From Glycera tridactyla (Eukaryota): a stretch of 64,000 nucleotides of DNA. The notes below the pieces were generated by a model that saw only the letters and a program-made list of their open reading frames with translations, was not told the DNA's origin and did no database searches. Below are positions 5,251-58,805 of this stretch, piece by piece. Position 1 is the first letter of the stretch, and each line of letters starts with the position of its first letter. The position numbers were made by a program, and so were the translations under genes. The stretch is from assembly GCA_965644265.1 (NCBI GenBank), contig OZ286477.1:51770001-51834000 (forward strand), given 5' to 3'.

Positions 5251-5284
<34 letters not shown>
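5251..5284. repeat. (TA)n microsatellite, left flank of LTR element
   Basis: Pure TA run abutting the LTR; homologous to the uninterrupted (TA)n at 58658-58676. Confidence 0.95.
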
Positions 5285-5286
<2 letters not shown>

Positions 5287-6203
5287 GACGGGCTACCGGT
5301 CTGTTGTAGTATATGCTGCGTGGGGCGGTCGAGGGTACGGATCACCAAATTGCTCGCGTTCTCCTACGTTTCTTCCCGATGTCCAATATGCTTACAATAA
5401 ACGATGTGGAGTCCACTTCTTCTTCTTGTGTTTTCACTATGAATGCCTAGTGTTAGAGTGTCACTATATTTCACAAGAGTTCCTGTACGTGGGGGTAAGA
5501 TGTATACGAAATGTATCACAACTCGCTTGAATAGTGATGCATAAAGCAGGCTGTTAAGCTCTACTCAGTGAGGTACTGGATCTTCATGGAGTCGATGTCA
5601 TAGCCGTCTGTCTGGTGGTCCGTCCCCTTCCTTGCCCCTGGGTATAACGTCTGGTAGTGCCCGAATTGCAGTACCCCGATTTCTCGATTTTCTGGGGATT
5701 TTATAGTAAAGTGAGGTATGCCGTTTCTAAGCATATCTCGGCCAATTCTGACGTGTGAGTGGCATGAGTCATATTGGTGACTAATACGGTGTCCGACATG
5801 ATCGGGAGGTGCATTCCTCACCGTCTGGGACCATTTTTGGGTCCCTGAGACCCGGCAGTGCCGAGATATTGACCTACAAAACCTACGTCACTTGACTACA
5901 GTAAATAGGTCAATTTTGACGTAGGACCGGCAATTTGGCTTGTTCAATGCCTTATATAGAATGTTCTTGACCATTTTCCTAGAAATCCGGTGGTTCTGGC
6001 GCTTGTAGCTCGTATGATAGCCGCTACTGCGCTTTGAACGTGGTACCCCCTCTAGGAAGTATTGGTCTATTAATATTTGCAGCATCAGACTGGCCATGGG
6101 CTAAGCCGCGCTCAGTCTTTTGCCCGCTAGCTTTCGTTCCAATCGGACGTATGTATGCTAGCTCTACAGGAATCATATATATCAAGTGAGTGGCTCCATA
6201 ATA
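5281..6203 (-). repeat. 3' LTR (TG...CA core 5286-6198)
   Basis: Direct repeat of 19105-20027 at offset 13824; four substitutions seen by eye, all in the U5-side third. Ends TATTATG...CATAATA. Confidence 0.95.
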
Positions 6204-6207
6204 TATG

Positions 6208-6218
6208 CTCCTGTTTTT
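6208..6218 (-). promoter_or_regulatory. Putative polypurine tract
   Basis: AAAAACAGGAG on the - strand just upstream of the 3' LTR; short and interrupted by one C. Confidence 0.45.
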
Positions 6219-7237
6219 AAGGATTTTAGCCCTCTAAAATAAAAATGAAAAATAATAAAAAATGATGAAAAATGCACAGTTGTTATCATGAAATAAGTAA
6301 AATTATTTTGTGATTTTTGATACCCTTCTTTCCTTATTACTCCTTCTTTAAAGAAGACTGCCCCAGCTGTCTCCATGTCAATTGTATTGTAAAATGTCTC
6401 TGTCTTGTGTGTACCTCCTTTTCGGAGCCGCTCAACCCGAGTAATTTATTTTGATAATACAACAATAAATATATGAATAAATATGTGAATAATACATGCA
6501 TTTTATTCACAACATATGTACGGCATGTCTCAAATCATCGGGTCCAATATTCATACAACATCAGAATTTCACTCATCATGCGTGTCTGCAATCGTGGCGT
6601 ATGTGTTATGCGTGTATACGTGTTTTCATGCTGTATATAACCATTAATAATAGAATTCACACACTACAAATATATTAACAAATCCGACAATTTCGTAATT
6701 TATCAAGAGTGTACCCCGTCGACACATCGAGTTTTCACCAAGACACCGCCTCGAATCCGCAACCGTGATTGGTCTATTCGGATTTGCGCGTGTGTCCGTG
6801 GGGGTAACTTCTTCAAAATTGAAATAATGTACTTGGATTCAATGAAAAACGCCGTCTATGTGGCCAGTTGTCGAGAAACATTCCATATATTTGGTATTTC
6901 CTAACAGAATCATTCCACACTGCAAATATCGTGATAATGATGACTCAATCCTCTTATGGTAGCTGCTAAACTCATTCGTACGCAGCTGATTCATATGTTT
7001 GCCGTCATCACCAGGGAATAAAACTAATGGGTTGTTTGGCACACAACATGTGTAACACATTCATGGTTTCACTTTCGTGACTAATGTTTATACCTTGTGT
7101 CAAACAAGGGTATCTTTGGTGTATATAAACGTCAATGTAGATTCAATTACCATCTGGGGTAATTTATCAACATACCCCACCAAACTTTTCGTGGTATAAT
7201 ACTGCAAGTTTGGAGGCTTGAGTCACACTTTGCAATC

Positions 7238-7513
7238 ATGGACTGCCACTACTGTTTGCTCAAGCTCATATTCGCTGGATTCCATAACGAGAGTTATTTG
7301 CATTGCATAAACGAGACGTCTACTGTTACGCCTATTCTATCTACTGAGCCTCCCCATATGGACAATAACCCGTATGTTTGGATATGGGCAATAATACCAA
7401 TACTATTATTGCTGACCGTGTTCGTCCTCGTCATGTGGCGGGCATATAAGAGGTTCACTATGGGTAAGTACCCCTTTTGTCAGTTAAAGCTGTTAATAAG
7501 TAACAATAAGTAA
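7238..7513 (+). CDS. Antisense (to element) small membrane-protein ORF, probably the first exon of a spliced gene
   Basis: ATG in atcATGg context, N-glycosylation sequons NES and NET, S/T/P-rich stalk, a 21-aa hydrophobic helix VWIWAIIPILLLLTVFVLVMW then RAYKR. Donor G|GTAAGT at 7464 and TATATAAA at 7122-7129. Confidence 0.5.
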   Translation: MDCHYCLLKLIFAGFHNESYLHCINETSTVTPILSTEPPHMDNNPYVWIWAIIPILLLLTVFVLVMWRAYKRFTMGKYPFCQLKLLISNNK

Positions 7514-8154
7514 CTATAAGTACTGATTACCCCTAATCTGTGTTTGTGCATGTGTGTTATCTGGCATGGTGGATGTGATATGGCGGGTATAATCATACTT
7601 GTATATTCAGACTTCTTCAGGATTTGCTTCCGAACTGATCCGACTACTAGCCAGTCGTTCGTACTAATTGTCATTGAAACTATCATCGTTACGAGCGGCT
7701 CGTGCCAATGTCTGTGTTATGACTTGTATATCGGGTTTCACGCGTTACCAGTCAAGCGTGTAGTCGTATCGCCCAGACCTTGCCTGGCTTTCCCGCCGTC
7801 CGTAACATGATCGTTTCACTCTGCGCTGGTTCACTAGTCTCTAGGCGTTGTTGCCGAAACCATGGATCAGCTTCGTATAATAGTAGAAGTCATATCCGGT
7901 ATTTATCTTCTTCGCGCTTGCGAGGCGAGCATGATGAATGCTGAATCGGCCCCCACGGCTGTTCGTAACTCCAATTAGCCGAGGCGATCGTTAGGGCGAT
8001 GTTTGCATTGCTCGCCCAGCAGCATCTACCCATGGGAATAAGTATTAGCACATGTCTCTCAGTGGTAATCTACTTCTCGATCGTATTTCAATGGAAACAA
8101 TTGCTTGTGAAACAGAATAAGTTTAAATGATAAGATGATAAATCGTAAATCCTT

Positions 8155-8568
8155 TTATTGTGGACTAATAGCAGGCCTATTAGTCGTTTGTACCGCGATT
8201 TCCCGTCGTTCCATTATTTCGTAAGAATCCTCATCACTAAATGATGGGGGTGGGGGTATATTCCTTAGAGCTGTTACTAGCGGCTCTATTGCTCGCGGAT
8301 TGGAAATGGGTGGTTGTACCGGCCTTTTTGCGATTTTCTTCCAAGTGGTTTTCTTGTATCTGTATAGAAACCAGCCAGCTATCAATATGGTTGCTAGCAA
8401 CGATACTGTTATTATTAACACAATGAGTATTGTCAACCAGAGACTTCTCTGCTTTCTCTGGTCGGTGTGGATCAGATTGAATGGGTTAAGGGTCCTCCCC
8501 TTTAATATTTCGTCCATCGCTTTATCCAGATCCATTCCAAAAGATATCATATCATCTAGGCCCAACCT
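8155..8568 (-). CDS. env: Env C-terminal segment (TM anchor and cytoplasmic tail), in frame beyond a TAA
   Basis: Same frame as 8569-11013 (GAT TAA AGG TTG). Contains TM LWLTILIVLIITVSLLATILIAGWFLY, basic stop-transfer RYKK, and a YEIM (YxxPhi) motif in the tail. Confidence 0.8.
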   Translation of the reverse strand, partial: RLGLDDMISFGMDLDKAMDEILKGRTLNPFNLIHTDQRKQRSLWLTILIVLIITVSLLATILIAGWFLYRYKKTTWKKIAKRPVQPPISNPRAIEPLVTALRNIPPPPSFSDEDSYEIMERREIAVQTTNRPAISPQ

Positions 8569-11013
8569 TTAATCTTCTGTAGTAATATCCAAGGAAGGTA
8601 TTGGGATGCTATCTATTGATTTCGCATACCTGTTCTTCGTGTATTCTACTAACAAATCCACATTTAGCAGTCTCGATAATGCTGGTATATTTACAGGAAA
8701 ATCGATTTCCTGCGACATTTGTCTGTCCATACATCCATGTATAATAGGTGACACTGACAATGTCCTTCCTTGTCCGTCTGTCAACGTAACCTGACATGCA
8801 CAATCCTGGTTGACCACACAAAATCTACATCCTTCCCTAACCATTAACGCTCTTGTTGGACAACCTATGGAAATGGTTTGAGCATTCATGACCAGCAACC
8901 TGCCTGGAGCCAATGAATGCACATCCATTATATCTTCGTCCATTTCCAGTCGATAGGAACAGTGTTTTGTGATCTTTTCGTTGTCCCCAAGATATAAGCT
9001 CATGGCGCACGTAGGGTGGTAGGTATCATGGATGGTGGTCATTTGTTTGCAATGCACCGTGTGTGATTTAGTACATTGGATGAAGTCCATTTCACTCATT
9101 TCCAAAAACCTAGTATTGTCTATGGATATACCAAAAATCTTGTTGGGGGCCACAGGCCTAGTGACCAAACTTGCATTTAATGTGGCAGGTACGCTGAAAG
9201 TGGTCAGCTTGAATAGTTTGAAACTCGCATCCGTTGAACGTAGAGGAACCGTGATATGTATTACCAGCTTGTTGTTTCTCCATGAGTATTCCGGCTTTGC
9301 ATATTTATAGTATGATGCTGGCCTCATATTCGCAACCCTAAACACAATAAATTCCTTCCTTACGTGCTCATCAAGGTCCACTAATGCCTTAAATAAGTTT
9401 TCCTCCGGTATTATTGTGGAAGATAGCTCATTTCGTAGTAAAGAACGTAGGCCGGTCATGAAATTGTTCATTTCCCTTTCTACGATTGTTAGGTCCTGTA
9501 GCAAGGTGGCTATCATTGAAACTGCGAATGATGTATATTGTACACTCGCATATAGCCTTTTATTGAGATTTTCTATGATCGTTGAAAATTTGGTGTCCAC
9601 GTGGTTAATAGCTTCTCCCATCTTTATGAGATGTTTGTTGTTGGTTTGTGCGAGTGCAACCGCTTGTTTTTGGAAAGTAATAACCTTGTCCGCCATATTG
9701 AACTGATTTTCTTCAATTGTTTTCAATGCTTTGTGTATGTGTTTGGCTTCGTCTTGGGTTACTACGCCAAATAGAGAATTCAGAATTTTTCCTCCAAAAT
9801 TGAACAATCCTCGTTCCTTCCTTCTCTTAGTATCATCCGGATTGTATTCTGTGGCCTTTACTTGCTCTATGATGATTCCCATTTCTCGTATGTCAGTTTC
9901 GGTTGTTTTCATAGCAAATACCACTGAGTCAATCAATTCAATGAAGTCCTTTTCGTCAGACGTGACTTCCGAAGTCTCTCTTCTTTGCCTTCTTCCTTGT
10001 CCTGGTTCCGAAGTCTTGATTCTATTGAGTTGATTTGCGTAGTATGTACGTAATTCATTTGCCATGGCTTGGAATCTATCTGTTAGGTAGTGAACATGAC
10101 CGCATATGTATGCTCCTTGTGATTCCCATTCTGAAGTACCTTTCGTTCCATGTCCTTTGCATTTGCCGTCGTACGCATGCCTTATGTTTCTCAGGCTTCT
10201 CTCAGCTTCTTCTAATGTAACATTCCATCTTCCCCTGATAACTTCAGCAGGCGTTATCCTAGGATCATAGGGGTTTGTAATATTTTCTAATTTGGCTAGG
10301 GCCGTCCCAGCTTCCCATATACCCCTCATAATAATATTGTCCTGTCTTGGAGTATCTTCGACGTATAGAGCTTCTTTTAATGTGTTTAAAGCTGCTTTCA
10401 GTGAAGTGATAGACCTTCCCATTTTTATTTTCTTCATCGTCGTAGATCTTTTCGTTCGGATTCGTGCATTCGCACCGTATTCCCATCGTGCGTTAGTCAT
10501 CATCTCATCTAGTAGATCCATGGATATGGCGGTTCTGGTCGCCTTGATTTCGTTCAAAATTCCTTTTAGATACATACATGTTTCGTTGTTTGTGTCTTCT
10601 TCAATGTTTTCACCTAGACATTGATGCCATTGAAGACACTCTCCATCCTGGTTTGTTGCACATTGAGTATGGTTGTTCACGTCTGTGAACATTGTGGGGA
10701 TGTTCACAATGAACATTAGGTTGAAGGTAGCTGTCGTAGGGATATAGTCACCCTCTATAGGTGAAAAATGAGCCCCATAGTTTAACCTTTCAACAGGATT
10801 CATTCCAGTTGAATCAGGAGAATCTTGGGTTTGGTCGACTTGTTGAGCATTTCCCATAGCTCCACACCATGAGAGTATCATAAGTAGCATCATCAAAGAG
10901 CAATCTTCTCCAATGATTCGTCTTTGATGCCGTCTCGGTTTAATCACCACTGCAACACATAAAGAGGGGATAGGGACCCATAAATTCCTGTGCCTAGGCC
11001 GACTTATTGACAA
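8569..11013 (-). CDS. env: Envelope glycoprotein ectodomain, class I F-type (errantivirus env / baculovirus F-like)
   Basis: Signal-like MMLLMILSWCGAMGNA, RLNYGAHF motif, basic cleavage site KRRKER followed by fusion peptide GLFNFGGKILNSLFG, a heptad-repeat region and a Cys-rich C-terminal domain. The ORF start at 11013 is TTG. Confidence 0.85.
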   Translation of the reverse strand: MSISRPRHRNLWVPIPSLCVAVVIKPRRHQRRIIGEDCSLMMLLMILSWCGAMGNAQQVDQTQDSPDSTGMNPVERLNYGAHFSPIEGDYIPTTATFNLMFIVNIPTMFTDVNNHTQCATNQDGECLQWHQCLGENIEEDTNNETCMYLKGILNEIKATRTAISMDLLDEMMTNARWEYGANARIRTKRSTTMKKIKMGRSITSLKAALNTLKEALYVEDTPRQDNIIMRGIWEAGTALAKLENITNPYDPRITPAEVIRGRWNVTLEEAERSLRNIRHAYDGKCKGHGTKGTSEWESQGAYICGHVHYLTDRFQAMANELRTYYANQLNRIKTSEPGQGRRQRRETSEVTSDEKDFIELIDSVVFAMKTTETDIREMGIIIEQVKATEYNPDDTKRRKERGLFNFGGKILNSLFGVVTQDEAKHIHKALKTIEENQFNMADKVITFQKQAVALAQTNNKHLIKMGEAINHVDTKFSTIIENLNKRLYASVQYTSFAVSMIATLLQDLTIVEREMNNFMTGLRSLLRNELSSTIIPEENLFKALVDLDEHVRKEFIVFRVANMRPASYYKYAKPEYSWRNNKLVIHITVPLRSTDASFKLFKLTTFSVPATLNASLVTRPVAPNKIFGISIDNTRFLEMSEMDFIQCTKSHTVHCKQMTTIHDTYHPTCAMSLYLGDNEKITKHCSYRLEMDEDIMDVHSLAPGRLLVMNAQTISIGCPTRALMVREGCRFCVVNQDCACQVTLTDGQGRTLSVSPIIHGCMDRQMSQEIDFPVNIPALSRLLNVDLLVEYTKNRYAKSIDSIPIPSLDITTED
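10950..10975 (-). promoter_or_regulatory. Putative env splice acceptor
   Basis: - strand CCCTATCCCCTCTTTATGTGTTGCAG|TGGTG, a pyrimidine tract plus TTGCAG, upstream of the env signal peptide. Confidence 0.6.
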
Positions 11014-11549
11014 TATAATGTATATTATAATTGTCTAGAACCTTTCTAATAGACTGTGATGTAGTGTAGGGCGTTGTCATACAACAAGGATAATCATAAA
11101 ATTTTTATATAAATTCATGATTTCTACTGTGTGTTTTGGATCCGTTTCAATTGAATGTCGGCCTAATGCGGCATTTTTACAGGTTCCCTATTTCTCCCTA
11201 TTTATCATAGGCGTTTGCCTTTCTTCTTTGCTCATTGTGTTTACTGTCTCTTTTGGTGGCAACCGCTCCGGCTGACCAATACCTTTCGCGCGTCCGCGTT
11301 TCTTCACGTTTGGTGAATCCACACCTTGACTTGTATATTTTCTGATACTCTCTCGTAATTCCCTGAGCTCCATTTGCTCGAAGCTGCTCCATCATTTGTT
11401 AATATGGGGAGGTATGAGGTTACCTCCCTCTTATCCCGCCTCTTGGGCTCCCATGGGACCTTCAGGCTCACTCTGGGCTTGCTCACCCCTTTACCCCTGA
11501 TTTTCATCAGTTGTAAATCTTACTTCGAAGAGGCAACATCTATTTCACC

Positions 11550-11936
11550 ATGTCTTCCCAAAACATCGTAGTAGCTTGCATTAGCCAGTTCTGCTCCAAC
11601 GGGATTGTTGGAGTTCATTATGACGAGGAGCGAAGGGAGCTCCGTATCTATAGTGGTCGAGTTTCCACAAGTTATGACGACCACATTCTAGACGAAATTC
11701 GAAATTTCATCAGAACAAGGGAGATAGTGGGGTACTACTTTGATCAGGAACAATGTCGTGCCTCTCTTATCGTCAGGTTCAATGGTGGCATTGTCCTTAA
11801 CAATGCCAGAGCCGGTGCCTATAGGCACAACGATGGGTGCTCCAATTCTTCTGAGGGGCACGAACATGAGCCTGATAGCCATGACCCAGAAACTCCCCTT
11901 GTTTCGAATCAGAATCCCAGAAGGGTTCCTGTTTGA
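11550..11936 (+). CDS. Antisense accessory ORF (128 aa) between pol and env, unknown function
   Basis: caccATGt start; it is the first ATG after an acceptor-like CCCCTGATTTTCATCAG (AG 11509-11510). Globular-looking N-terminal ~85 aa; does not overlap pol or env. Confidence 0.5.
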   Translation: MSSQNIVVACISQFCSNGIVGVHYDEERRELRIYSGRVSTSYDDHILDEIRNFIRTREIVGYYFDQEQCRASLIVRFNGGIVLNNARAGAYRHNDGCSNSSEGHEHEPDSHDPETPLVSNQNPRRVPV

Positions 11937-12070
11937 ATGTGGCCGAATTTCGTTCACAGAAACTCAGCACCACGTATAGTGGTGCGTCCCAACAACTTGT
12001 CCCGTTCTGAGGGACGCAACATCGTTGGTCGAGAGGTAAGTGTCCTTTTTATATTCCCTTTTTGTCTTTA

Positions 12071-15000
12071 TTATCGTGCTTTCAGCTCCTTCAGCATCTT
12101 CCTCTTCTCTACACGAGCATTGTAGTCTCTTATGTGTTCTATTGGTACGATATCCGCCCGTAGCCATGTAGGCTTCTTGTCGCGCCACTCGCACATGTAT
12201 GAAACCTTTCCATTCTTCGTTGTGGACGTTATGACTTTTACTAGTTTCGACATGTCTTGTTTGTTCGTCTTACCGCTATTCTTTGGTTTGAAGCTGATTT
12301 CTGGATCAGTACTGACTGTATCTGTGTTTGACCTATTGTTTCTTTGCGCATGTTCTTTATTTACAAATGTTCTGTCTCGCTTTCGTCGCCTGGTTACAGG
12401 CGGTATGTTCGGAAGGGTAGAAGTTTCAGATTTCACACTTTCTTTGTCTTTTTCTCTTTGTGATTCTGCATTTTTCTCTCTTTCTTCTGTATTTTGCGTA
12501 TTTCCAATTGTCCGCTCCGGATTTGCATTCTGTCCGTCCTTCTCGGTCCTTTCGGTCCCTCTTAGGGTAGAATCAGCCTCCGGTGTGAATTTCTTTAACC
12601 TATTTTCTGGTATCAAGTGTTTGAGGGTGTGGTTATTGATACGTAGTAGGTGGAAACCTGGCTTCGGAGTTGAGACTATGATGAAAGGCCCCTCGTATTT
12701 CTGGCTAACTTTGTATTGAGAGGGAATCCTAGGGGTTACTATTTTTGCCCAAACCATATCTCCTGGTTTGAAACCTTTGTATGTAACCTTCTTGGATGTG
12801 TCGTGGCGCATTTTCATGTTTTCCGCATTTTTCCTGGCATTTCTGGCTGCTATGTGTCGTATAGCCATTAAATCAGACCATAATGAAGGGAAAACTTCCT
12901 GTGGTGGGACATCTCGAATTAATGGAGGTTCTTTCGTTATGTCACCGGAGAGAGTTGGTTCCAAACCATACATGATTTCGTAGGGCGCAAATCCGTGAGA
13001 CTTGATAGAGATGTCATGAGACCAACGAACATGAGGCAAAAATTCAGTCCATGATTTTTCAGGAAATTCCATCATACATGCTCGTAGTGAGCAAAGAATA
13101 CTAGAATGTAGTCGTTCTACTGCTGCATTGGCTTGAGGGTGCCAGGAGGTAATATACTGTAGTTTGATACTAAATTGTTCTGCCAAGTATTGGAAGGTTT
13201 TAGACGTGTGAGCTGCTGCTCTGTCTAATACGACCACCTTCGGAGGTCCAAATCGTTGAATCCACATTTTCATAAAATATGTAGCCAGGGTTTCAGCCTT
13301 TTCATTTGGAATAGTTTCAATCTCAAAGTGTTTTGAAAATCTGTCTACGATAACAAGTACTTTCAGGTTCTTATCTTTCGTTGGTGCAACCTTCAAGACA
13401 TCCATGTGTATCACTTCAAATAATGAAGCTGGTGGTCTTAATAAAAGGGGTGTCCTCTTATTATTGTAGTCCCTTTTAGCTTGACCGCAGGCTTTACAGC
13501 TAGCCACAAATTTAGCTAAGTCTTCGTACATCCCTGGCCAGTAGAATCGTTGCCGAACGATTTGTAGTAGACTGTTGAAACCTCTGTGAGATCCATGTGT
13601 TCCATGGTGGAAGAGTGCTGCTATTGCATACCTTCTATCATGTGGTAAGTATATTTGGTGAAATGTCTTATTGTTCGTATTGTCGTGGAATTTTCGGCAT
13701 AAAACTCCGGAATTCGTAAGCAAATATTTGTCCTCCTCTGCCATGATTTTTCTTGCATGAGCCAGAGTCTCTGGCAGAGATTTATTCAATTTGTATTGAT
13801 ATAGGAATGCCGAGTCTCTGTCATTGGCTTGTTCCAGTGCCATTTTTCTTTCGTCTATCATATATTCTGTATACAACTCGATGCAAGCGGTTTCATCCAG
13901 TAGTAAGGCTTCCTCGTATGAAATATCATCTGAATCCTCCAGGCCCAGTTGTTTTTCTTCTTTGTCGTATGGTGAATCACCCTCACTGTCGGCTATGTGT
14001 TCGATATCCGTCTCGGACATAACGTTCCCATCAGCGTCTTTCCCGCTGCTGGTACACGATTCTTCCGCGTGGCGGCGAGCGTCTCGCTGGGGGCCGGTTT
14101 TGGCGGGAAAGGTGGGCGTGGCACTTTTCTCTCTTTGACCATGCTGTTTATCCGTTGTGTCGAACATATTGAATCGCCGCTCTCTTGCTTCACACTCAGA
14201 TGAATCTATTTCATTGCTGGGCTTGTATGGCTTTGTCCTGATTCCCATTAAACACTCCTTCTTCGTTATTGGTGATTCCAAGAATTCTGTAGTATTGATA
14301 AGACAATGGTTGTCACCTTCTTCATCCATTGATAACATGGGTTGTTCCACGTAGGTTATTCTAGATAAGGTGTCAGCTACAACATTTTCTTTGCCTGGTT
14401 TGTGCAGTACACGGATATTGAATTTATTCAAAAACATTTTATAACGAAAGAGCCTGCCGGTTTTAGTGGCCAGATTGTGTAAATATACGTTTGTCAAATT
14501 ATCAGAAAATACTGTTATATCTGTTTGAGAGCCCAACATTAATTCACATTGTTTCAATGATTCTACGAGTGCTAGGGCTTCCTTTTCATTCGAATGGTAA
14601 TTTGCTTGTGATGGATTTAATGTCTTCGATATAAATGCTACAGGTCTGACTATATTTTCTTCATCTTCCTGCGATATAACTGCGCCTACTGCCCTACCGC
14701 TAGCATCTAGGTATACTGTAAATGGCTTGGCAGGGTCAGGATAGTATAATACCGCATTTTGCAGAAGGGAGGTTTTTATACTGTCTAATGCTTCCTGGCA
14801 TTCCTCGGTCCAGATAAATTCATGATCTTTCTGTAGGAGTTTGTTTATTGGTGCAGCTATGGCCGCATATCCTCTCACAAATCTACGATAAAAGTTGAGC
14901 GTACCCATCAACTGTCTGACTTCTTTGACATTATTAGGGGCTGGGAGCTTTATTAACGCTCCTAATTTGTTAGGATCGGCCTTTACCCCATCTTTGTTGA

Positions 15001-16192
15001 AAATATATCCCAGATATTTAACCTCGGATTTCATAAACATGGCCTTTGATGGCGATATTCGTAGTCCCACTTGTCTAAGTCTCCACAGAAGTTGACTCAT
15101 AACTTCTAAATGTTTTTCATATGTAGGGGTTGTAACAATAATATCGTCCATATATGATGTGACGTATTTTGAGTCCAAAGTAGCTAAACACCTAGAAATG
15201 ATGCTAGAAAATATTTCTGGGCTTGAATTTAGGCCCATAGGTGTCTTCGTAAAGGTGTATTTTGCATTGCTAGTATTTATCGTACAGATATCAATACTGT
15301 CTGGTGCCAATTGAACTGCATAGAATGCTGAAGCCAGATCGACTACGGAGAAGACCTTGTTTTTCCCTGCCGCTAAAGTGGCTATGATATCGTTAATTGT
15401 TGGTATTGGTGATTTTGAGGGTACTATCATTTTGTTCAAATTGGAAAAATCAACCACTAATCTGGGTTTGATGGGTTTACCATCATCATACTTGTATACT
15501 ACGAAGGTGGGTACACCCCACATAGAATGTGATGGTTTCAATATTCCTGCCTCTACTAACCTTTGAATTTGTTCATCTAAGTCTTTCTCTTGCTGTGGAG
15601 GTAACTTGTATGCTCTCTGATTCACAACAGTTGCTTCTGGCTTTAGTTCTATCCTATGATATACATCTCTTATGACTGCCAACTCGCTCAGGTCTACGGC
15701 AAATGCCTCTCTATTATTATCTAGAATAGATAATAATTCTTCTCTATACTCGTCAGCCGCAGGTTCCAACGATAATATATCGTCCCAAACGATAGGTTTG
15801 AAAGTTCGAATCCTAGTCTGGTTCGAGATGTCTACTTCTGTTTGAGTTGATATTTCTCTACTGTTATCGTTTTCTTCCTCCACAACGAAAGGGGCAGAAT
15901 AGTCCTGCCGTGGCCATAATACTTGTAATGAGTTTATTTGTTCACCGCTACATGGAAGTGGCGCTGATGGTCTCGCTAATGCGGACCGTTCGCCTACGTA
16001 TACAGAACCTGGCATTCCTCTCTCATTAGATATAGGTCTGGCCAAGTGGGCTTGCGCAATGGTAATCTGCGCATCTGAATCTATATATACGTTCTTTGAA
16101 GTTGGATTCGAAACAATATCAGGAATGTATTCTTCTGGCTTCTGAAGGCAATCCCCGGAACCGTCGATAGTTGTGGGGTATTCTTGACTATT
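12071..16192 (-). CDS. pol: Pol: reverse transcriptase, RNase H, integrase, chromodomain-like C-terminus
   Basis: RLVVDFSNLN, VDLASAF, YMDD (15143-15154); RNase H YLDAS...EKEALA...FSDN; HHCC, D-D-E and KYEGPF in integrase; C-terminal VKVI...GKVSYMCEWRDKKPTW (12122-12247). Frame is open from 16192. Confidence 0.95.
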   Translation of the reverse strand, partial: NSQEYPTTIDGSGDCLQKPEEYIPDIVSNPTSKNVYIDSDAQITIAQAHLARPISNERGMPGSVYVGERSALARPSAPLPCSGEQINSLQVLWPRQDYSAPFVVEEENDNSREISTQTEVDISNQTRIRTFKPIVWDDILSLEPAADEYREELLSILDNNREAFAVDLSELAVIRDVYHRIELKPEATVVNQRAYKLPPQQEKDLDEQIQRLVEAGILKPSHSMWGVPTFVVYKYDDGKPIKPRLVVDFSNLNKMIVPSKSPIPTINDIIATLAAGKNKVFSVVDLASAFYAVQLAPDSIDICTINTSNAKYTFTKTPMGLNSSPEIFSSIISRCLATLDSKYVTSYMDDIIVTTPTYEKHLEVMSQLLWRLRQVGLRISPSKAMFMKSEVKYLGYIFNKDGVKADPNKLGALIKLPAPNNVKEVRQLMGTLNFYRRFVRGYAAIAAPINKLLQKDHEFIWTEECQEALDSIKTSLLQNAVLYYPDPAKPFTVYLDASGRAVGAVISQEDEENIVRPVAFISKTLNPSQANYHSNEKEALALVESLKQCELMLGSQTDITVFSDNLTNVYLHNLATKTGRLFRYKMFLNKFNIRVLHKPGKENVVADTLSRITYVEQPMLSMDEEGDNHCLINTTEFLESPITKKECLMGIRTKPYKPSNEIDSSECEARERRFNMFDTTDKQHGQREKSATPTFPAKTGPQRDARRHAEESCTSSGKDADGNVMSETDIEHIADSEGDSPYDKEEKQLGLEDSDDISYEEALLLDETACIELYTEYMIDERKMALEQANDRDSAFLYQYKLNKSLPETLAHARKIMAEEDKYLLTNSGVLCRKFHDNTNNKTFHQIYLPHDRRYAIAALFHHGTHGSHRGFNSLLQIVRQRFYWPGMYEDLAKFVASCKACGQAKRDYNNKRTPLLLRPPASLFEVIHMDVLKVAPTKDKNLKVLVIVDRFSKHFEIETIPNEKAETLATYFMKMWIQRFGPPKVVVLDRAAAHTSKTFQYLAEQFSIKLQYITSWHPQANAAVERLHSSILCSLRACMMEFPEKSWTEFLPHVRWSHDISIKSHGFAPYEIMYGLEPTLSGDITKEPPLIRDVPPQEVFPSLWSDLMAIRHIAARNARKNAENMKMRHDTSKKVTYKGFKPGDMVWAKIVTPRIPSQYKVSQKYEGPFIIVSTPKPGFHLLRINNHTLKHLIPENRLKKFTPEADSTLRGTERTEKDGQNANPERTIGNTQNTEEREKNAESQREKDKESVKSETSTLPNIPPVTRRRKRDRTFVNKEHAQRNNRSNTDTVSTDPEISFKPKNSGKTNKQDMSKLVKVITSTTKNGKVSYMCEWRDKKPTWLRADIVPIEHIRDYNARVEKRKMLKELKAR

Positions 16193-17004
16193 TCATATGA
16201 AATATCTAAGGAATCTGGTTCTTTCATGTAATTTGGGGTTATTGTATTCTCACTGTCAGCAGTCATATCGATATGGCAAGAGATCATTGCGGTCTCCATA
16301 GGTTTCATAATCGTGGAATCTGAAGCTTTCAATATATATGAGCATTCCCTTATAGTTGTCATCAATACGCTGGTGATACCTCCTTCTAAATGCAATCTGC
16401 TCTCTGAATAGTCAATTTTCGCCTTTGTTTGCTGGAGAAATGGTACACCTAGGATGACTTGTAAGGGTATGGCTTCCACTACGAGGAATCTGACTAATAT
16501 TTCCTTACTATTAATAGTTATGGGAATACTCACTGATCCTATCACTTTCATTTTCTGTGCCTGCGCATCGTATAGTTCTACCTCGTGTTTCGTATCTATT
16601 TCTCTCCTCAAATCTAACTGTTTCAGAATGTCTTCTGTGATAAGATTAGTTGTAGCCCCTGTATCTATCATAGCCGCTATTTGTGTATGTTTGATATATA
16701 TTTTAATAGAGTTAAGTGTACCCAACTTCTGACGTATTCGATTCCTATCACCTGTAGAGAGCGTCAATGATGAATTAACCGTTTCTCTTTTTGTTATGTT
16801 TTCATCATGTATTCCTCTGACACTATACACATGCCTACTACTGTTTTCTACATTACTGCCACTACTAATATTTTTCTTATAAAATTTCACTACAAATTCT
16901 AACAGATCGCAATGATCAGGGAGCGTATGCTCACAATCTATCCCTAATGGACAATCTACCCAGTTAAATGCACTCGTGACCCTATTTACGACATGCCCTC
17001 TATC
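16081..17004 (-). CDS. pro: Aspartic protease segment (same frame as gag, after TAG) with the start of a dUTPase-like relic
   Basis: AMIDTGAT (DTGA 16654-16665) and VILGVPFL. The frame opens directly after the TAG at 17005-17007 and overlaps the pol frame (-1) at 16084-16192. Confidence 0.9.
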   Translation of the reverse strand, partial: DRGHVVNRVTSAFNWVDCPLGIDCEHTLPDHCDLLEFVVKFYKKNISSGSNVENSSRHVYSVRGIHDENITKRETVNSSLTLSTGDRNRIRQKLGTLNSIKIYIKHTQIAAMIDTGATTNLITEDILKQLDLRREIDTKHEVELYDAQAQKMKVIGSVSIPITINSKEILVRFLVVEAIPLQVILGVPFLQQTKAKIDYSESRLHLEGGITSVLMTTIRECSYILKASDSTIMKPMETAMISCHIDMTADSENTITPNYMKEPDSLDISYEIVKNTPQLSTVPGIAFRSQKNTFLILFRIQLQRTYI

Positions 17005-17247
17005 CTAGTGAGAAAAAGGGTTTTTTGACCCTGCATTTCCTGTCGGCCTTGGTCCCTGGGGAGTGTAACCCTGGGAATAGCCTTGGGAATATCCTTGAGA
17101 ATATCCCTGCTGATTTTGCCCATTATATTGTTGGCCTTGAGAATTAAATTGTCCCATGGTCTGGGTCTCTCTTACTCTATTAATGGCTTGAGCCATAAAT
17201 CCGTCATGATGCTGAGGATTAGTAATGTTGACATACGCCTTCATTAC
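17005..17247 (-). CDS. Gag C-terminal Q/G/Y/N-rich tail, in frame after TAA
   Basis: TTC TAA GTA ATG keeps the gag frame; contains (QGYS)3 repeats and ends GSKNPFSH-TAG. Confidence 0.6.
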   Translation of the reverse strand, partial: VMKAYVNITNPQHHDGFMAQAINRVRETQTMGQFNSQGQQYNGQNQQGYSQGYSQGYSQGYTPQGPRPTGNAGSKNPFSH

Positions 17248-19077
17248 TTAGAAACAATTATTTGATGTATGCCCTGGCTTTAAACATGCTTCACAGACAG
17301 GTGTATTTTTATCTATTTTCTTATTATAATTATTATATGTTCCAGGCCCAGGCGTGCCCCAGGAGGGAGGACCGGACGACGAGTTCGAACTCTGAGTCAA
17401 ACTGGTGAGTCTCTTTTTACAGTCCCTTGCTATATGGCCTATCTTACCACAATGGTAGCATGTGATTTTTCTTCTAGTTTCTTGGTCCCCTATTGGTCCA
17501 TTATTTATTAACTCCCTTATTGCGTTCAAAAGTTCTTTGTTTTCGGGAGGTTCTTTCTCCTGTTTCTGAGGGACCTTTTGGTCCTCTTCCCTTTCTTTTA
17601 TTATTGGCGTAGTCGATATGGCTGCTACTTTGTCCGTTAATTGCTGCATTTGTTCTGGTAAACTGGATAGTGCCTCTGAACTGGGCAATCTTTTATCCAA
17701 TTTATCCATTACTACACTGATAGTCGCATCCATTGTTGACTCCGTAGCTATTTCTTCTAAATTTCCAGCAGTTTCTGCTGCTTCTAATACTGAATCCACG
17801 GTTAATGGATTTGCCATCAGCATGTAGTTTTTAGCAACTGGGTTCAACCCTGATAATATAATACTTTTGTATTCACCAAATTGCGCCTGATTAAAGGCTT
17901 GCCCTTGTTTCAATTTGAATAAAAACCTACATTTATTCACTATCCTCATACAAAATTGTTTAGGTGTTTGTGCTGCACCTTGTTTGGTTTTGTACAATTT
18001 AGCCCTAAAGGCAGGCTCACTGTTTCCTTGTACACAGTATTCTGCAAGGAATCTTCTTTCTATTTCCTCGAAAGAAGTGTCTTTTGTCACATGGACAGTG
18101 GAGTACCATTGCTTCACTGAGTCACTAAGGTTAAATGGAAAGTGTCTGACCTTTTCATAGTCAGACAGTCCGTGTAATGCACAGTATTCATTGAATAGGT
18201 CCAACCATTCAATGGGATTGTTTTTGGCTTGAAATTGCTGTACCTTGACTAGACTCTTATCCTTCACTACGAAGGTATGTTGAGCTTGTGGCATAAAATT
18301 CGGTGGTTGTGTAGAAGGTGGGCCATGGATGGCCATGTTATGTTCCACCAGTCCTGTTTTGGGACGGGTACCTGCCCCTAATGGGACGTCCCTAGGCGTG
18401 CTTGTCCTTGCACCAAAAGATGTGTGATTAATATTCGACAAAAATGGATCATAAGTTTCTGGTATATTGTATGTGTAGCGAGGGGGAGGGTAATATGCAT
18501 TGTCAAAAGAATGTAATTCACCTGTTCTCTTTTGAGATGGGTTTCTTCTCGTGAATTCCCCTGGCGTGATTCCTTGATTCATATTCTCCTGTGTCATAAT
18601 CCCTGTATTTCTGCTTTCTTGTAGTGTAATCCCTGAATTTCCTTTTTCTTGTGGTGTAATTCCTAAATTCCTGTTTCCCTTTTGTTTCAGAGCCTTCGAA
18701 AGCCGTCTATCCACAATATCCCGTACGGACTCCTCATCGTCACCATCATCACTGCTTAGATCCCCACCATCCTCTGCTTCCGTGTCCTCTTCATCGTCTT
18801 CTTCAGCCGCTTTTTCCCGATCTTCTTCATTTTGCCGCTTGTCAACGTCTTCTGCAGCTTCTTCGCCATCTTTTCCTGCAATTTCTTGATTTTTGGACAA
18901 TTCTTTCCCTGCTTTCTTCGTATTTTCGTCATCAGACATGCTTGCCTGCGCTGCTTGACTTTTAAATGTCACCTCACCGCTACTATCACCTTCCATATCG
19001 CCTAGCTCTCCTCCTCCAGCCCGAACGATCGTCGTCGAACGTGGCGTGTCCGTATACGCTTTAGAAGTCTGTTCCAT
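17248..19077 (-). CDS. gag: Gag
   Basis: Acidic N-terminus, capsid-like PIEWLDLF...QWY region, two CX2CX4HX4C knuckles (CYHCGKIGHIARDC, CEACLKPGHTSNNC), PPPRY at 18475-18489, and four 10-aa repeats (N-x-GI-x-x-[Q/G]E) near 18560-18680. Confidence 0.9.
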   Translation of the reverse strand: MEQTSKAYTDTPRSTTIVRAGGGELGDMEGDSSGEVTFKSQAAQASMSDDENTKKAGKELSKNQEIAGKDGEEAAEDVDKRQNEEDREKAAEEDDEEDTEAEDGGDLSSDDGDDEESVRDIVDRRLSKALKQKGNRNLGITPQEKGNSGITLQESRNTGIMTQENMNQGITPGEFTRRNPSQKRTGELHSFDNAYYPPPRYTYNIPETYDPFLSNINHTSFGARTSTPRDVPLGAGTRPKTGLVEHNMAIHGPPSTQPPNFMPQAQHTFVVKDKSLVKVQQFQAKNNPIEWLDLFNEYCALHGLSDYEKVRHFPFNLSDSVKQWYSTVHVTKDTSFEEIERRFLAEYCVQGNSEPAFRAKLYKTKQGAAQTPKQFCMRIVNKCRFLFKLKQGQAFNQAQFGEYKSIILSGLNPVAKNYMLMANPLTVDSVLEAAETAGNLEEIATESTMDATISVVMDKLDKRLPSSEALSSLPEQMQQLTDKVAAISTTPIIKEREEDQKVPQKQEKEPPENKELLNAIRELINNGPIGDQETRRKITCYHCGKIGHIARDCKKRLTSLTQSSNSSSGPPSWGTPGPGTYNNYNKKIDKNTPVCEACLKPGHTSNNCF

Positions 19078-19092
19078 TGTATCATCGACAGC

Positions 19093-19102
19093 TTCTCCAC
19101 CA
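19093..19102 (-). promoter_or_regulatory. Primer-binding site, tRNA-Ala type
   Basis: TGGTGGAGAA lies 2 nt inside the 5' LTR end and is complementary to the ...TTCTCCACCA 3' end known for animal tRNA-Ala. Confidence 0.75.
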
Positions 19103-19104
19103 TA

Positions 19105-20027
19105 TATTATGACGGGCTACCGGTCTGTTGTAGTATATGCTGCGTGGGGCGGTCGAGGGTACGGATCACCAAATTGCTCGCGCTCTCCTACGTTTCTTCC
19201 CGATGTCCAATATGCTTACAATAAACGATGTGGAGTCCACTTCTTCTTCTTGTGTTTTCACTATGAATGTCTAGTGTTAGAGTGTCACTATATTTCACAA
19301 GAGTTCCTGTACGTGGGGGTAAGATGTATACGAAATGTAACACAACTCGCTTGAATAGTGATGCATAAAGCAGGCTGTTAAGCTCTACTCAGTGAGGTAC
19401 TGGATCTTCATGGAGTCGATGTCGTAGCCGTCTGTCTGGTGGTCCGTCCCCTTCCTTGCCCCTGGGTATAACGTCTGGTAGTGCCCGAATTGCAGTACCC
19501 CGATTTCTCGATTTTCTGGGGATTTTATAGTAAAGTGAGGTATGCCGTTTCTAAGCATATCTCGGCCAATTCTGACGTGTGAGTGGCATGAGTCATATTG
19601 GTGACTAATACGGTGTCCGACATGATCGGGAGGTGCATTCCTCACCGTCTGGGACCATTTTTGGGTCCCTGAGACCCGGCAGTGCCGAGATATTGACCTA
19701 CAAAACCTACGTCACTTGACTACAGTAAATAGGTCAATTTTGACGTAGGACCGGCAATTTGGCTTGTTCAATGCCTTATATAGAATGTTCTTGACCATTT
19801 TCCTAGAAATCCGGTGGTTCTGGCGCTTGTAGCTCGTATGATAGCCGCTACTGCGCTTTGAACGTGGTACCCCCTCTAGGAAGTATTGGTCTATTAATAT
19901 TTGCAGCATCAGACTGGCCATGGGCTAAGCCGCGCTCAGTCTTTTGCCCGCTAGCTTTCGTTCCAATCGGACGTATGTATGCTAGCTCTACAGGAATCAT
20001 ATATATCAAGTGAGTGGCTCCATAATA
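19105..20027 (-). repeat. 5' LTR (TG...CA core 19110-20022)
   Basis: Direct repeat of 5281-6203, adjacent to the PBS and gag. Confidence 0.95.
19776..19782 (-). promoter_or_regulatory. Candidate LTR TATA box
   Basis: TATATAA on the - strand (also at 5952-5958 in the 3' LTR); motif match only. Confidence 0.4.
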
Positions 20028-20057: not shown

Positions 20058-20134
20058 TTTTTTTTTTTTTTTGTAAATAAACTTCAGTCCGAGTCTTGTC
20101 ACGCACGGGTTGGGATGTCTCGCCTCGTCCTGTC

Positions 20135-20135
<1 letters not shown>
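20058..20135. mobile_element. Short second insertion inside the right-flank TA tract (T15 plus 63 bp)
   Basis: Sits between TA runs (20023-20057 and 20136-20168) and is absent from the empty site at 58658-58680. Confidence 0.55.
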
Positions 20136-20168
<33 letters not shown>

Positions 20169-25550: not shown

Positions 25551-26196
25551 ATAGTCTTTAAGGTCTATCAAATGCTGATTTTGATGTCTTCATGATATTT
25601 GGTTGCAGGTCTGGCATTGAACTTTTAATTTACTGCATAAAGTTTGACAACTACTATTGGAAGATACCTACAGAGATACCGATCATTGATCAACCGCCTG
25701 GAAGGAAATGTTGGCTGGCATCACAAGATTCCATATCATCATCACCATCCACATTGGTGTGATTGCTTAAGACTTGCAGAAAGAAGTAAGATTCTGGGTA
25801 TTCATCTGTATGGAAAGACATTCATGATAGATATTTCAGTTTATTAGTGGAGGAGATTGAAAATCTCATCTATGCATGCATGCATGTTCATCCATCTGAA
25901 GTGCATGAATACGCAAGCGAGTGCCTATATACTTTATCCTTAGTTAAGTAGCTGTAGAGAGAAACATATGATCATACCTGGTTTGTTGTCATGATGACGT
26001 ATGTCTATTTTACTCTTAGAAACTGCCAGCCTTCAGTATATATGATGCTTCTTCATGTAACTTGCGTCCATTGTTATGGTCTTATTATTTCTTAGCTCAG
26101 TGATTTTGCTGTGTATATTTTTTTCCCGTGTATTGACACAGAGGGGTACCTTCTGCTATCTTCTTGAATTCATGAACAAGCCTAATCAGCTCCATA

Positions 26197-29100
26197 ATGA
26201 GTGATAAAATTAAGTGCAGGGTTTGCCAAAGTTATGTCAATAATTTATCAATTCACATGCGAATCCACACAGGTGAGAAACCATACACCTGTCATTTATG
26301 TAATAAGGCCTTCAATCAGAAATCAAATCTAAATACACATCTGAGGTCGCATGCCACTGATAGGCCATATAAATGTGATCAATGTGGTAAACTGTTCAAA
26401 TCACAAGGGGTTTTGAAATCTCATGAGCGAGTGCATTCAGATGAGAAACCATATGCTTGCCGCTATTGTACTCGATGTTTCAAAGATGCCGGTGATAGAG
26501 GTAAACATGAGAAGACTCATACAGGTGTCAAGCCATTCCAGTGTACAACTTGCTCAACATGTTTCGCTAATTCTGGCACCTTGAAACTGCACATCAGGAC
26601 ACACACAGGAGAGAAACCATATAAATGTAAATATTGTGAAAAATCGTTCTCAACAGGATCCTACCTAACGATCCATCATCGTCTTCACACAGGAGAAAAG
26701 CCCTATCAGTGCTCTTTCTGTTTCAAAACCTTCCGTCAGCCATCAAACCTACTTAGGCATACTCTGACACACACTGGAGAGAGAAATTTCAAATGTGGTG
26801 AGTGTGAGAAATGTTTCCCATCCCTTGCTGGCCTCAAAATTCACATCGAATCACATTCATTGGAGCGAAAGTTGTACCCATGTGATCAGTGCAGTCACCA
26901 AGCAACCCGTTTAGACTGTCTAGAAGACCACAAACAGAGAAAGCATGGGAAGCCTCATATATGTCACCATTGCAATGTCACTTTCAGGCATAAGGTCATG
27001 CACACAAAACATATGATTCTTCATAGAAGTCAGAATGAAATCAGATGTCATGCATGTGGCAAGGAGTTTAATTATGTCACAGATTTTCAAACTCATCTTT
27101 CTGTTCATGTCAAGTGTAAGATATGTGGCTTGGCTTGTACTAATAGTGAATCTTTGAAGAATCACTTGCAAGGGCATGATACTAAGAAATCAGTATCATG
27201 TAAAGTATGCAACAAAATGTTTCGAAAGAAAGGATCTCTCAACATTCATATGTTCAAGCACACCAACGAAAGACCATATCATTGTAAATTTTGCAATGCA
27301 ACATTCAAGTCTTTTGGAGAACTGGCTAAGCATCACAAAAAAGTACACAGTTCTGAACCACCACCTGTCAACAATATCAAGTTTCCTTGTGATGAGTGTG
27401 ATCGTATATTCAAAACGGAATATGTTTTGAAAACGCACAAACAAAAATTACATCTAAAAAATGGTAAAACAGGGAATGAGAGACCACATCAGTGTAACTT
27501 CTGCCATGCAACATACAAATCATTCCCAGAACTGGTTAAGCATCACACAAAAAAACACAGTTCAGAACCACCACCTATCAACGATATCAGCTTCCCCTGT
27601 AATAGGTGTGATCGTATATTCAAAAGGGAATATATGTTGAAAATGCACAAACAAAAAATACATCTAAAAAATGGGGAACAGAGAAATGTCTCAGTACAAA
27701 AAATGGAAAATGGATCCATTCTGTCTGGACCAACCTCATCGATTACAAAATGCTCAGATCTGAAGTACAAATGCACAATATGCAATCATAATCTCCAATC
27801 AGAGACCTGTTATCAAGTACACATGACATCTGAGCATGGCCTTGGCAACTCCACAGTAAAAATCGTATCTGATACATCAATTCAAAAGGCCAGTACAAGT
27901 ATTGACTCCAGATCATCTGACACTGTGCGAGAAAATGCAGATCTTGCGAATCAAGATCATAGTATGGAAGTGGCTGATCCATCGACTAAGTCTACAGAAG
28001 ACCCTCTACAGAACTTGATCTTACCTCCTGGAACAGCTAAGCTCTTGAAAGAACTGACAGTGTCACTTGTGAGAATACCAAATGAGGTTCACCATCATAC
28101 AGTATCAGACCAGATTAGTTGTGAGGCATTGCAAGGGTCAGATGATGTCATGGATGACCAGTCATCTAGAGATGCTTCTCCCTGTATTCAAGCCATGTCA
28201 GCCAGTGGTGATGCTGAGCTGCATGAGCATTGGGCACCCATCATATGGTCATATCCTGCTGCTTGTCAAGATATCAGAGATGTTACTACACATAACCCAA
28301 ATGTTATATGTACACCCAATAGTATTGAATGTCCAACAAGAGCTGCATATTCTTCATCGACTCGAAATGCATCTGAATCTGATACTGATCTTACAGAACA
28401 TGCAGAGTGCTACACAAGTGATAAAATGCAAATGACTGACCAACCAAGAGTTGCTTTGTCAAATGGATCAATCAATACCAGACGCATACAGTTATGTGAG
28501 CAGTCCAAGGGGGGCAACAAAAAGGGATACCTGACTTTGCAGAGAGATCCTGATTCCAGCAAACCATTTCAGTGTGGACTATGCCGTAAGAACTATAGTT
28601 CGAAACGTGGTCTGAAGAGGCATCACAGAAAGAAACATTCAGAAGAAACATTTGAATATGAACATATTGAAATGATGCATACACAAATATCTACAATTCC
28701 TAGCATTGTGCATCCTGCTGTCTGGCCTTCGACATCGACAGGAAAGCCTCCTGTGCAAAGCAAGGGTACATTCACTCGGGGAGAGGATACCGCAAGATAT
28801 CTTCTGAGCTCCCAGGTCAGAGGTACTGCGGAATCTACCAGAGGCAGTCTTGTTGAATGTAATACCAAGTGTTTTTTGGGCAGTCTGACCAAAACTAATA
28901 CAGGATATCTTTCGGTCGATGGGATTGCAGACAATACAAATCATGCTTCAGACTATCCTGCTGAGGGTATGACAGAACACCCCTCGGATGGTCTGGCCAA
29001 AGATGAAGCAGCATATTCTCCAAGCAATGAAACTGAGGGTGGTATGAAAGATCCTTCAAGCAATGTGTTGGATGATTGTTCAAAACTCCTTTCAGGCAAG

Positions 29101-36109: not shown

Positions 36110-36860
36110 TCGAATTTGACTTTAATATGTCTAGGTTAAGCTTTAACGAGGCAAACCATACAGAGACGTCGGACAATTCACTGTTCATTAAAGGCTAAAT
36201 TTCGTCAATAGAATATCCTGTGAATAACAGGGCTGTACCATCTGCATAAGAATATGGATGACAGAAGTTACTTTGTTGGCTGATTGCATTATGGTGTATG
36301 ATTAAAAGTAGAGGGACTAAAATGGAGCCCTGGGGCACATCATAATCCACCCGCAATGGATGGTAAACAGGGCCCAATTTTAGTGGACTGTGTACAGCCT
36401 GATGGGTATGAACATAGCTAGTTGCTCCAGAGTATTTCTCACTATAAGTAACCTGTATTAGACAACAACCTGTCTCAGGCAACCACATTTCACTGCCCCA
36501 AGGGTGGTTGCTGAATACAGGTTTGACTGTACGATAGCTTTTCACATTTCTTGTATCAAATGCCTCCTTCAAGTCCAGGAACAAGACGCCACTCAGTATC
36601 TTTTCATAGGATGACTGACAGTTATCATCTAGGTAGCCAGCCAGGCAAGTCCCTGTGGAGTATCCCTTTCTGACCCCAAATTCAGCCGAATTGTGTCAAT
36701 GTGTCAGCCGAATTGTGTCAATGTGTCAACAGTCTTGTTATTGTCATGTACATTTTATCGATGACAGGCCTCTCAACAAGCTTGCCCAAGACAGACAAAA
36801 GGGAAATCAGCCTAAAATTGATGGTTCATGATTTTGAGTATGGTGGGAAGACAATTATAA
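36110..36860 (-). pseudogene. LINE RT relic, spacer B
   Basis: FLDLKEAFDT, VPQGSILVPLLL and YADGTAL in ORF 36195-36584. Confidence 0.8.
36425..36529 (-). mobile_element. Truncated Tc1/mariner-pogo-type MITE end inside the LINE relic
   Basis: - strand TA|CAGTCAAACCTGTATTCAGCAACCAC...; absent from spacers A and D; the other end is not recognisable. Duplicated at 49388-49492. Confidence 0.4.
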
Positions 36861-58657: not shown

Positions 58658-58676
58658 TATATATATATATATATAT
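58658..58676. repeat. (TA)n microsatellite, the empty site of the LTR insertion
   Basis: Flanks ...gtcatttataggaa and tgatatagctc... match the sequences either side of the element in copy A. Confidence 0.92.
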
Positions 58677-58805
58677 TTGATATAGCTCTTATAGATGTGT
58701 GATACATGACATACTTAGGCCCGTTGGTTGATGAATTCAATTCAACCCCAACTAACTAACCAACCAAACATTTTGTCCCCTGTTCCTTTTGCCCCTTATT
58801 TCTCT

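Follow-up and report, generated by a model that had tools for sequence, protein, structure and literature searches.

The 64,000-nucleotide stretch of the Glycera tridactyla genome analysed here (the window) carries, at 5281-20027 on the minus strand, a 14,747-bp Ty3/gypsy provirus, both integrated ends of which are read directly. Two small open reading frames (ORFs) lying antisense to its other genes, ORF-A and ORF-C, are under purifying selection, and ORF-A is exchanged between copies of the element in a cassette-like manner. The explanation we favour, and to which we give an even chance, is that the element is a germline invader with microsatellites as its targets, which uses its envelope gene (env), obtains Gag-Pol by readthrough and expresses two spliced antisense genes, of which ORF-C would belong to the env route and ORF-A to the cell surface, in a host conflict that maintains its versions by balancing selection.

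Copies of the element were sought in the 2.04-Gb assembly. The 150 scored among 539 ORF-C candidates are all 95-100% identical to it, and the 40 scored among 1264 candidates for the long terminal repeat (LTR) are nearly all 98-100% identical; the genome holds at least 150 copies. Among 14 full copies, identity is 95.0-99.6% and the paired LTRs of a copy differ at 0-7 sites, in agreement with the young family proposed by an earlier reading made from the DNA letters alone (the sequence-only reading). The LTR pair of the window copy, aligned over 929 nt, differs by four substitutions and no gap, which would give it an age of about 0.2-1 million years if the rate is taken to be 2-10 x 10^-9 substitutions per site per year. 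Recombination has made mosaics of these elements: in the 14 full copies, env and pol haplotypes differ by up to ~12% over 500 nt. Two sister families, B and C, have about 60% Pol identity to the window family and share with it the 5' end, the primer-binding site (PBS) and the polypurine tract. Family C is 14.9 kb long, env-bearing and endowed with an ORF-C homolog. Family B, of 12.6-12.9 kb, has LTR pairs 99.5-100% identical, a fragmented env and no ORF-C, still lies in (TA)n and is an active family, apparently an env-less derivative. The two sister families also have their post-env DNA in common, at 74-89%.

ORF-C (11550-12035, plus strand) stops at a donor-like GTRAGT at 12036. In 14 copies picked by their LTRs, its shared variants are 12 synonymous versus 4 nonsynonymous. 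Its ratio of nonsynonymous to synonymous substitution rates (dN/dS) is 0.08-0.10, the value for its core being 0.08 in a set of 38 copies (the window copy plus 37 of 40 loci fetched to span ORF-A diversity, two outlying loci and an unaligned one having been dropped). Of 34 copies, 32 have this frame open, while each of the other five is stopped in 33-34; the donor-like motif is kept in 34 of 38, and the frame past it varies freely. At the same position, family C has an antisense ORF that is 25% identical to ORF-C (score 58 versus 24±4, reached by 0 of 5000 shuffles) and ends at the same phase-0 donor-like motif. An ORF-C profile, itself partly built from family C, matches five of five family C loci and none of five env-decayed family B loci, and no trace of ORF-C above chance is found in family B. 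ORF-C is under purifying selection, and ORF-C and env have been lost jointly in family B. A raised synonymous divergence of ORF-C, suggested by the 38-copy set, was not upheld in the 14 LTR-picked copies.

The structural model of ORF-C (mean pLDDT 59) comprises a predicted alpha-beta-beta-alpha-beta-beta domain of about 90 residues followed by a tail. Fold searches with it returned only generic small alpha/beta matches, the best being a designed protein (Z 9.4, root-mean-square deviation 1.9, 72 residues aligned) and the best natural one a PulL domain (Z 7.3), with no viral match under an E-value of 0.01. Homologs of ORF-C gave no match in 1.84 billion representatives and no usable one in Atlas, blanks that do not show absence. 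Neither ORF-C nor ORF-A has a Pfam match above the curated cut-off.

ORF-A (7238-7463, plus strand) runs as far as a phase-1 donor-like site (7464), kept in all 38 copies; both antisense ORFs thus terminate at conserved splice-donor-like sites. Hydropathy and alignment predict a single-pass membrane protein with a CHxC start, N-glycosylation sequons, a Ser/Thr-rich stalk, a transmembrane segment and a basic patch, and the protein begins with MD or MA in 13 of 14 aligned alleles. A TATA-like motif (7194-7203, plus strand), about 40 nt upstream of the ATG, is a candidate antisense promoter; it is present in 37 of the 38 aligned copies and in all 16 carriers of the second and third types displayed (see below), despite the divergence of the alleles. 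Identity to ORF-A is 42-100% in the 150 scored among 580 candidates, and 148 of these 150 are stop-free. In the 38-copy set dN/dS is 0.18, length changes are in frame in 35 of 36 cases (9 of 26 to 18 of 37 in the flanks), and the frame is open in every copy, the other five being stopped in 36-38. One second-type copy was excluded from the ORF-A and ORF-B counts in the 14-copy variant analysis. Searches for ORF-A homologs found none in the public protein sets examined and, in Atlas, generic small membrane proteins scoring 0.85 at best; these blanks do not show absence either.

Most backbones of the 38-copy set are ~85-94% identical in env where ORF-A drops to 62-85%. Because the choice of these copies inflates ORF-A divergence, a sample of the 50 copies closest in ORF-C was taken and matched by eye to the ORF-A scores. 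It holds a window-like ORF-A in 32 copies, an open second type, ~30% identical, in 14 and a third type in two; one more copy is second-type-like without an intact ORF-A, and one is unaligned. Between types, synonymous sites have reached saturation (pS 0.78). In several carriers, identity drops at the start of ORF-A, from 98% to 62%, and is restored by 7550, and the types are exchanged as a cassette between backbones 95-99% alike. A further divergent patch (6700-6900, 66-90% identity), with no clear coding signal, travels with the second- and third-type ORF-A. Family C has a separate 136-aa antisense ORF near its 3' LTR, terminating at a phase-1 donor-like GTGAGT. ADAR-type editing was considered as a source of variation in ORF-A and ORF-C and is unsupported, there being no A>G excess.

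The sequence-only reading had drawn attention to antisense genes in some 3 kb of extra sequence (6204-8154 and 11014-12070). This holds for ORF-A and ORF-C; two other candidates are unsupported, since the ORF at 7550-7807 has a dN/dS of 0.67 and that at 6496-6675 is stopped in 36 of 38 aligned copies, and the bulk of the extra sequence is non-coding.

How the deep ORF-A types arose admits several explanations. ORF-A could be a real gene whose divergent versions came from sister lineages by template switching and are neutral, with no balancing selection. The mosaic structure of the copies, the dN/dS below 1 and the patch at 6700-6900 that accompanies the second type would agree with such imports. 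We nevertheless regard them as somewhat unlikely, as no other segment of the 14 full copies exceeds ~12% divergence, the border of the swap coincides with the ORF-A start in several carriers, and the second type is common and intact.

ORF-A could alternatively be an allele-specific superinfection-exclusion (immunity-type) protein, by which a resident provirus blocks particles of its own type and rare types spread. Its predicted surface topology, an antisense orientation that could make its expression independent of genomic RNA, and the presence of several deep types at intermediate frequency in an env-bearing element are all consistent with this role. It is unlikely, however, in view of the pairing of ORF-A with env: the first type occurs on both env haplotypes, and the sole second-type full copy has a window-like env.

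A helper of cell-to-cell transfer of the FAST/sORF2 kind appears quite improbable. The short ectodomain, single transmembrane segment and basic patch of ORF-A recall the coarse layout of sORF2 of the Drosophila MDG1 group (PMC11952523), but the sORF2 candidates described there are all sense and were chosen for an N-myristoylation motif, whereas ORF-A is antisense, has no N-terminal Gly in its two main types and bears N-glycosylation sequons. Furthermore, the element already has an env, and env-decayed family B is without ORF-A. Finally, it is scarcely credible that the antisense ORFs arise as a side effect of sequence that is non-coding or acts in cis: no homolog was found in the public protein sets searched and the ORFs are known from DNA alone, but against this stand the bias by codon position, indels that keep the frame, conservation of the ATG and of the donor-like sites, the stops in the other five frames and the 25%-identical positional homolog of ORF-C.

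A further feature concerns the integration sites. TG…CA was the first guess for the LTR ends and was rejected, the outer ends of the window copy reading TATTATG…CATAATA. Among 33 insertions tried (one being the end pair of a 31-kb span taken as a tandem dimer), the outer 5' ends read TATTATG in 30 of 30 and the outer 3' ends C[A/G]TAATA in 32 of 32. Both ends were located in 29 copies, of which 27 show a target duplication of 4 bp and none one of 3 bp. TATA flanks both sides in 21 of these 29, against a background of 0.45% for TATA in the 64-kb window; six of the eight other sites match exactly (CATA twice, GATG, TAAA, TATC and GATA). In families B and C, a TA run is present at the 3' flank in eight of eight loci with an LTR pair and at the 5' flank in seven of eight, and the 3' ends read …AAAA. 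As two additional bases separate the LTR from the PBS or the polypurine tract at the inner junctions and are absent at the outer ones, the two terminal bases are probably removed by the integrase (3' processing). Some LTRs have inserted head to tail with another LTR, at the TA-rich end of the latter; the resulting tandem LTRs and probable dimers could be explained by a TA-preferring integrase, which would also target the TA-rich ends of the element.

Gag and pro-pol are separated by a single in-frame stop (17005-17007, minus strand), present in 14 of 14 full copies. The same gag-stop-pol layout is seen in the seven sister-family loci displayed (TAG in four, TGA in three), and the 110 codons ahead of the first Met of pro-pol are under purifying selection (shared dN/dS 0.24). 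The AAAAAAC run ahead of the stop was considered as a -1 frameshift site and rejected, since the shifted frame is closed after a few codons. Readthrough of the one stop would be the simplest way to make Gag-Pol.

The remainder of the provirus, all on the minus strand, has the near-identical LTRs and gag-pro-pol-env order announced by the sequence-only reading, whose coordinates are the exact integrated ends. The LTRs, of 923 bp each, lie at 19105-20027 (5') and 5281-6203 (3'). The tRNA-Ala-like PBS, TGGTGGAGAAGC, is at 19091-19102, two bases from the LTR end, and the polypurine tract at 6206-6218 is inside a 47-nt block with 89-91% identity in the sister families. Gag (17005-19077, ~690 aa) has an acidic N-terminus, a CCHC knuckle and the PPxY motif that had been noticed, PPRY at residue 198; PPSY and PPAY occur in sister-family Gags (one copy per family). 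Gag also has short repeats: four GYSQ motifs close to the C-terminus and, within its N-terminal third, a GIT-x-QE repeat in degenerate form (17005-17200 and 18500-18680). Pro-pol (12071-17004) encodes protease, reverse transcriptase (RT), RNase H, an acidic spacer, integrase and a chromodomain-like tail. Pfam matches were obtained for the Gag zf-CCHC (4e-9), protease (3e-10), RT (4.5e-25), RNase H (1e-29) and integrase (2e-13). The PR-RT-RH-IN order between LTRs is that of Ty3/gypsy (Metaviridae), and the type is confirmed by the best PDB match of RT-RNase H, which is Ty3 (1e-48, versus 8e-30 for the best retroviral RT). The F-type env (8155-10893, ~910-950 aa) matches Baculo_F (E 1.1e-13, 51.2 bits versus a cut-off of 24.1), and has a fusion-peptide-like GLFNFGG, furin-like motifs and a C-terminal transmembrane helix; a search for env homologs was blank, which does not show absence. 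The chromodomain suggested for the integrase tail is weak in the window copy alone, with no Pfam Chromo match and a phmmer hit to the cpSRP43 chromodomain (E 0.005) ranked under two designed proteins; it is clearer with a profile of five relatives, which matches cpSRP43 chromodomains at E 5e-8. The window copy has private breaks, namely an env stop at 8569-8571, a gag stop at 17248-17250, a pro/pol frame change around 16,115 and an ORF-C stop at 11934-11936, and none of the 13 other full copies shares them.

In the explanation favoured here, that of an env-using germline invader, tRNA-Ala would prime reverse transcription, Gag-Pol would be made by reading through the single stop, and the integrase would trim two terminal bases and then prefer TATA-like targets. 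PPxY would aid budding and the F protein would mediate entry. The antisense mRNAs, transcribed from internal promoters, would be spliced; ORF-C would serve an env-dependent route, and ORF-A may act at the surface of provirus-bearing cells, as Vpu-type accessory proteins counter host factors, its divergent versions being likely maintained by conflict with host defence. A more ambitious proposal, which we hold tentatively and below an even chance, is that of an infectious, retrovirus-like invertebrate lineage with independently evolved spliced antisense accessory genes, a 'serotype' ORF-A cassette under frequency-dependent selection and a microsatellite-targeting integrase with TA-ended substrates. 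The frequency-dependent selection, as tentative as the proposal of which it is part, could come from host counter-defence or from allele-specific superinfection exclusion, alleles being swapped between otherwise identical genomes.

Several observations weigh against the germline-invader explanation. The dN/dS of ORF-A is below 1 in every estimable part (0.14-0.39), and there is therefore no direct sign of positive selection on it. Choosing the 38 copies to span ORF-A diversity inflates the open-frame count as well as the divergence, and, in 13 LTR-picked copies with the window-like allele, third positions of ORF-A (0.037) are close to those of RT (0.036) and gag (0.032). The ORF-A type does not follow the env haplotype in the 14 full copies, no ORF-A homolog is detectable in families B and C, and, the whole element being a recombination mosaic, the deep alleles could be neutral imports. 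The ORF-C model yields no function. A sliding scan found no second coding exon, and no conserved acceptor passed the filter in 7490-8154. The antisense genes are known from DNA alone, with no transcript, splice junction or protein seen; contigs from four runs whose kind is uncertain, 90-99% alike for the most part, cover 28-30 of 30 bins with no joint at 7464 or 12036, but as contigs cannot show strand or expression they count neither for nor against. No stable RNA structure was found downstream of the gag stop (z +0.7 to +1.3).

The provirus lies in a (TA)n run (5252-5280, resuming from 20028) that is intergenic within a 13-kb tandem unit, and the homologous run at 58644-58690 is empty. Each unit carries one long C2H2 zinc-finger ORF (1293 codons; C2H2 by eye), at 1-1310, 26176-30057, 39237-43094 and 52200-56100. 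The zinc-finger gene array of the sequence-only reading is thus real, with the provirus itself standing between genes. The middle zinc-finger ORF has two stops, although two neighbouring units share 99.6% identity. At 20066-20136, in the same microsatellite and behind a T run, is the 3' end of another repeat, CCTGTCA followed by (TA)n; it has 20 matches in the genome, with TA-run ends in four of five others inspected, and is possibly a second TA-targeting element. Inside a tandem unit, at 36195-36695 (minus strand), a 166-aa frame resembles by eye a decayed non-LTR reverse transcriptase fragment.

The element is of a kind already known, as gypsy elements with an F-type env and chromodomains, in annelids among other non-insects, have been published. 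Ancient errantiviruses (Chary and Hayashi, eLife 2026; PMC13524379) are F-type env gypsy elements outside insects, with a Cnidaria/Mollusca/Annelida clade that has chromodomains, and the new-lineage framing of the sequence-only reading was accordingly overstated. The window element shares with them the gag-pol-env order, a Ty3/gypsy RT, an F-type env (theirs, downstream of pol, is of F or gB type), a chromodomain after the integrase, and multiple, recent copies; a similar PBS is assigned to tRNA-Ala in some annelid members (PMC13524379 supplement). By its env and its chromodomain, rather than by comparison with the 1512 elements of the survey, it would be an ancient errantivirus. The group is also marked by a 'mini' domain after RNase H, in the bridge region, and by a place in the Pol tree apart from the insect members. 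Its 14.7 kb is only somewhat longer than what is known, since annelid members reach ~12.6 kb among the rows seen. The main text of the survey has no mention of antisense, accessory, target site, microsatellite, readthrough or splic, and it places insect errantiviruses in a separate Pol group (PMC13524379). The non-insect host that had been proposed is borne out by an invertebrate mitochondrial code and an annelid-like mitochondrial gene order. On the mitochondrial contig, nad3, nad2, cox1, cox2 and cox3 share a strand, and the COX1 sequence also resembles that of annelids, which makes an annelid host likely. The clade appears to reach beyond this genome, because five public pro-pol proteins (2006-2201 aa, RT 59-65% identical to the window element, no Gag at their start) end in the same chromodomain-like tail; in a quick tree that included no named reference, they form a supported clade with the window family, B and C (SH-aLRT 99).

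Other systems share some of these features. The Drosophila errantiviruses gypsy, ZAM and Idefix have, like the window element, an F-type env, sequence-specific integration (TATA, ATAT or CGCG targets) and non-TG…CA ends, the last two together being called exclusive to insect errantiviruses (Nefedova and Kim, 2017; PMC5408687); their ends are nevertheless AGT…AnT, in contrast to TATTATG…CATAATA, and neither a chromodomain nor antisense genes were noticed in that account. TATA-ended Copia elements occur in lotus (PMC9804982). Troyka LTR retrotransposons, found in annelids, also have non-canonical termini, with CG…CG ends and a 3-bp duplication (Kojima, 2025; PMC12440569) instead of TA…TA and 4 bp. 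Plant Retand (Tat) elements with antisense TRP28 ORFs have a long region between pol and the 3' LTR and conserved antisense ORFs, but they are non-chromoviruses, and the abstract describes no F-type env for them (Vicient, 2025; PMC11963269). MDG1-group sORF2 resembles ORF-A as a small accessory protein that spans the membrane once and has a basic patch behind the transmembrane segment; unlike ORF-A, it is sense, carries a myristoylation motif and belongs to env-less elements (PMC11952523).

In the literature searched, which excluded Repbase, GyDB and subscription papers, no animal env-bearing gypsy element was found to carry antisense genes under selection or a membrane-protein cassette that can be exchanged, or to target microsatellites with TA-ended LTRs. 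Within that literature, TA LTR ends with a 4-bp duplication mostly in (TA)n, the kept gag-pol stop, ORF-C and the ORF-A cassette are apparently undescribed. The complex lineage of the sequence-only reading had been drawn without the TA-ended LTRs and their targeting of (TA)n, the stop between gag and pro-pol, or the ORF-A alleles that can be swapped. Complex vertebrate retroviruses have the antisense HBZ of HTLV-1 and the accessory Vpu of HIV-1, and those of gamma/epsilon type make Gag-Pol by readthrough. Antisense coding, a small membrane accessory protein, a PPxY late domain and an in-frame gag-pol stop bring the window element close to them, but its RT is Ty3/gypsy-like and its env F-type, and the resemblance is by analogy only.

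Selected accessory genes together with an exchangeable membrane-protein cassette form a signature such as that of complex retroviruses, and they provide two concrete proteins to examine. They bear on the question of whether non-insect gypsy elements that have an env are genuine viruses, engaged in conflict with the host. The clade may be under-annotated, because tools requiring TG…CA would miss or mis-bound TA-ended LTRs in (TA)n, and a sequence-preferring integrase that carries a chromodomain is of mechanistic interest. Finally, an env-bearing family with ORF-C, standing beside an active, env-decayed sister without it, offers a natural experiment on the loss of infectivity.

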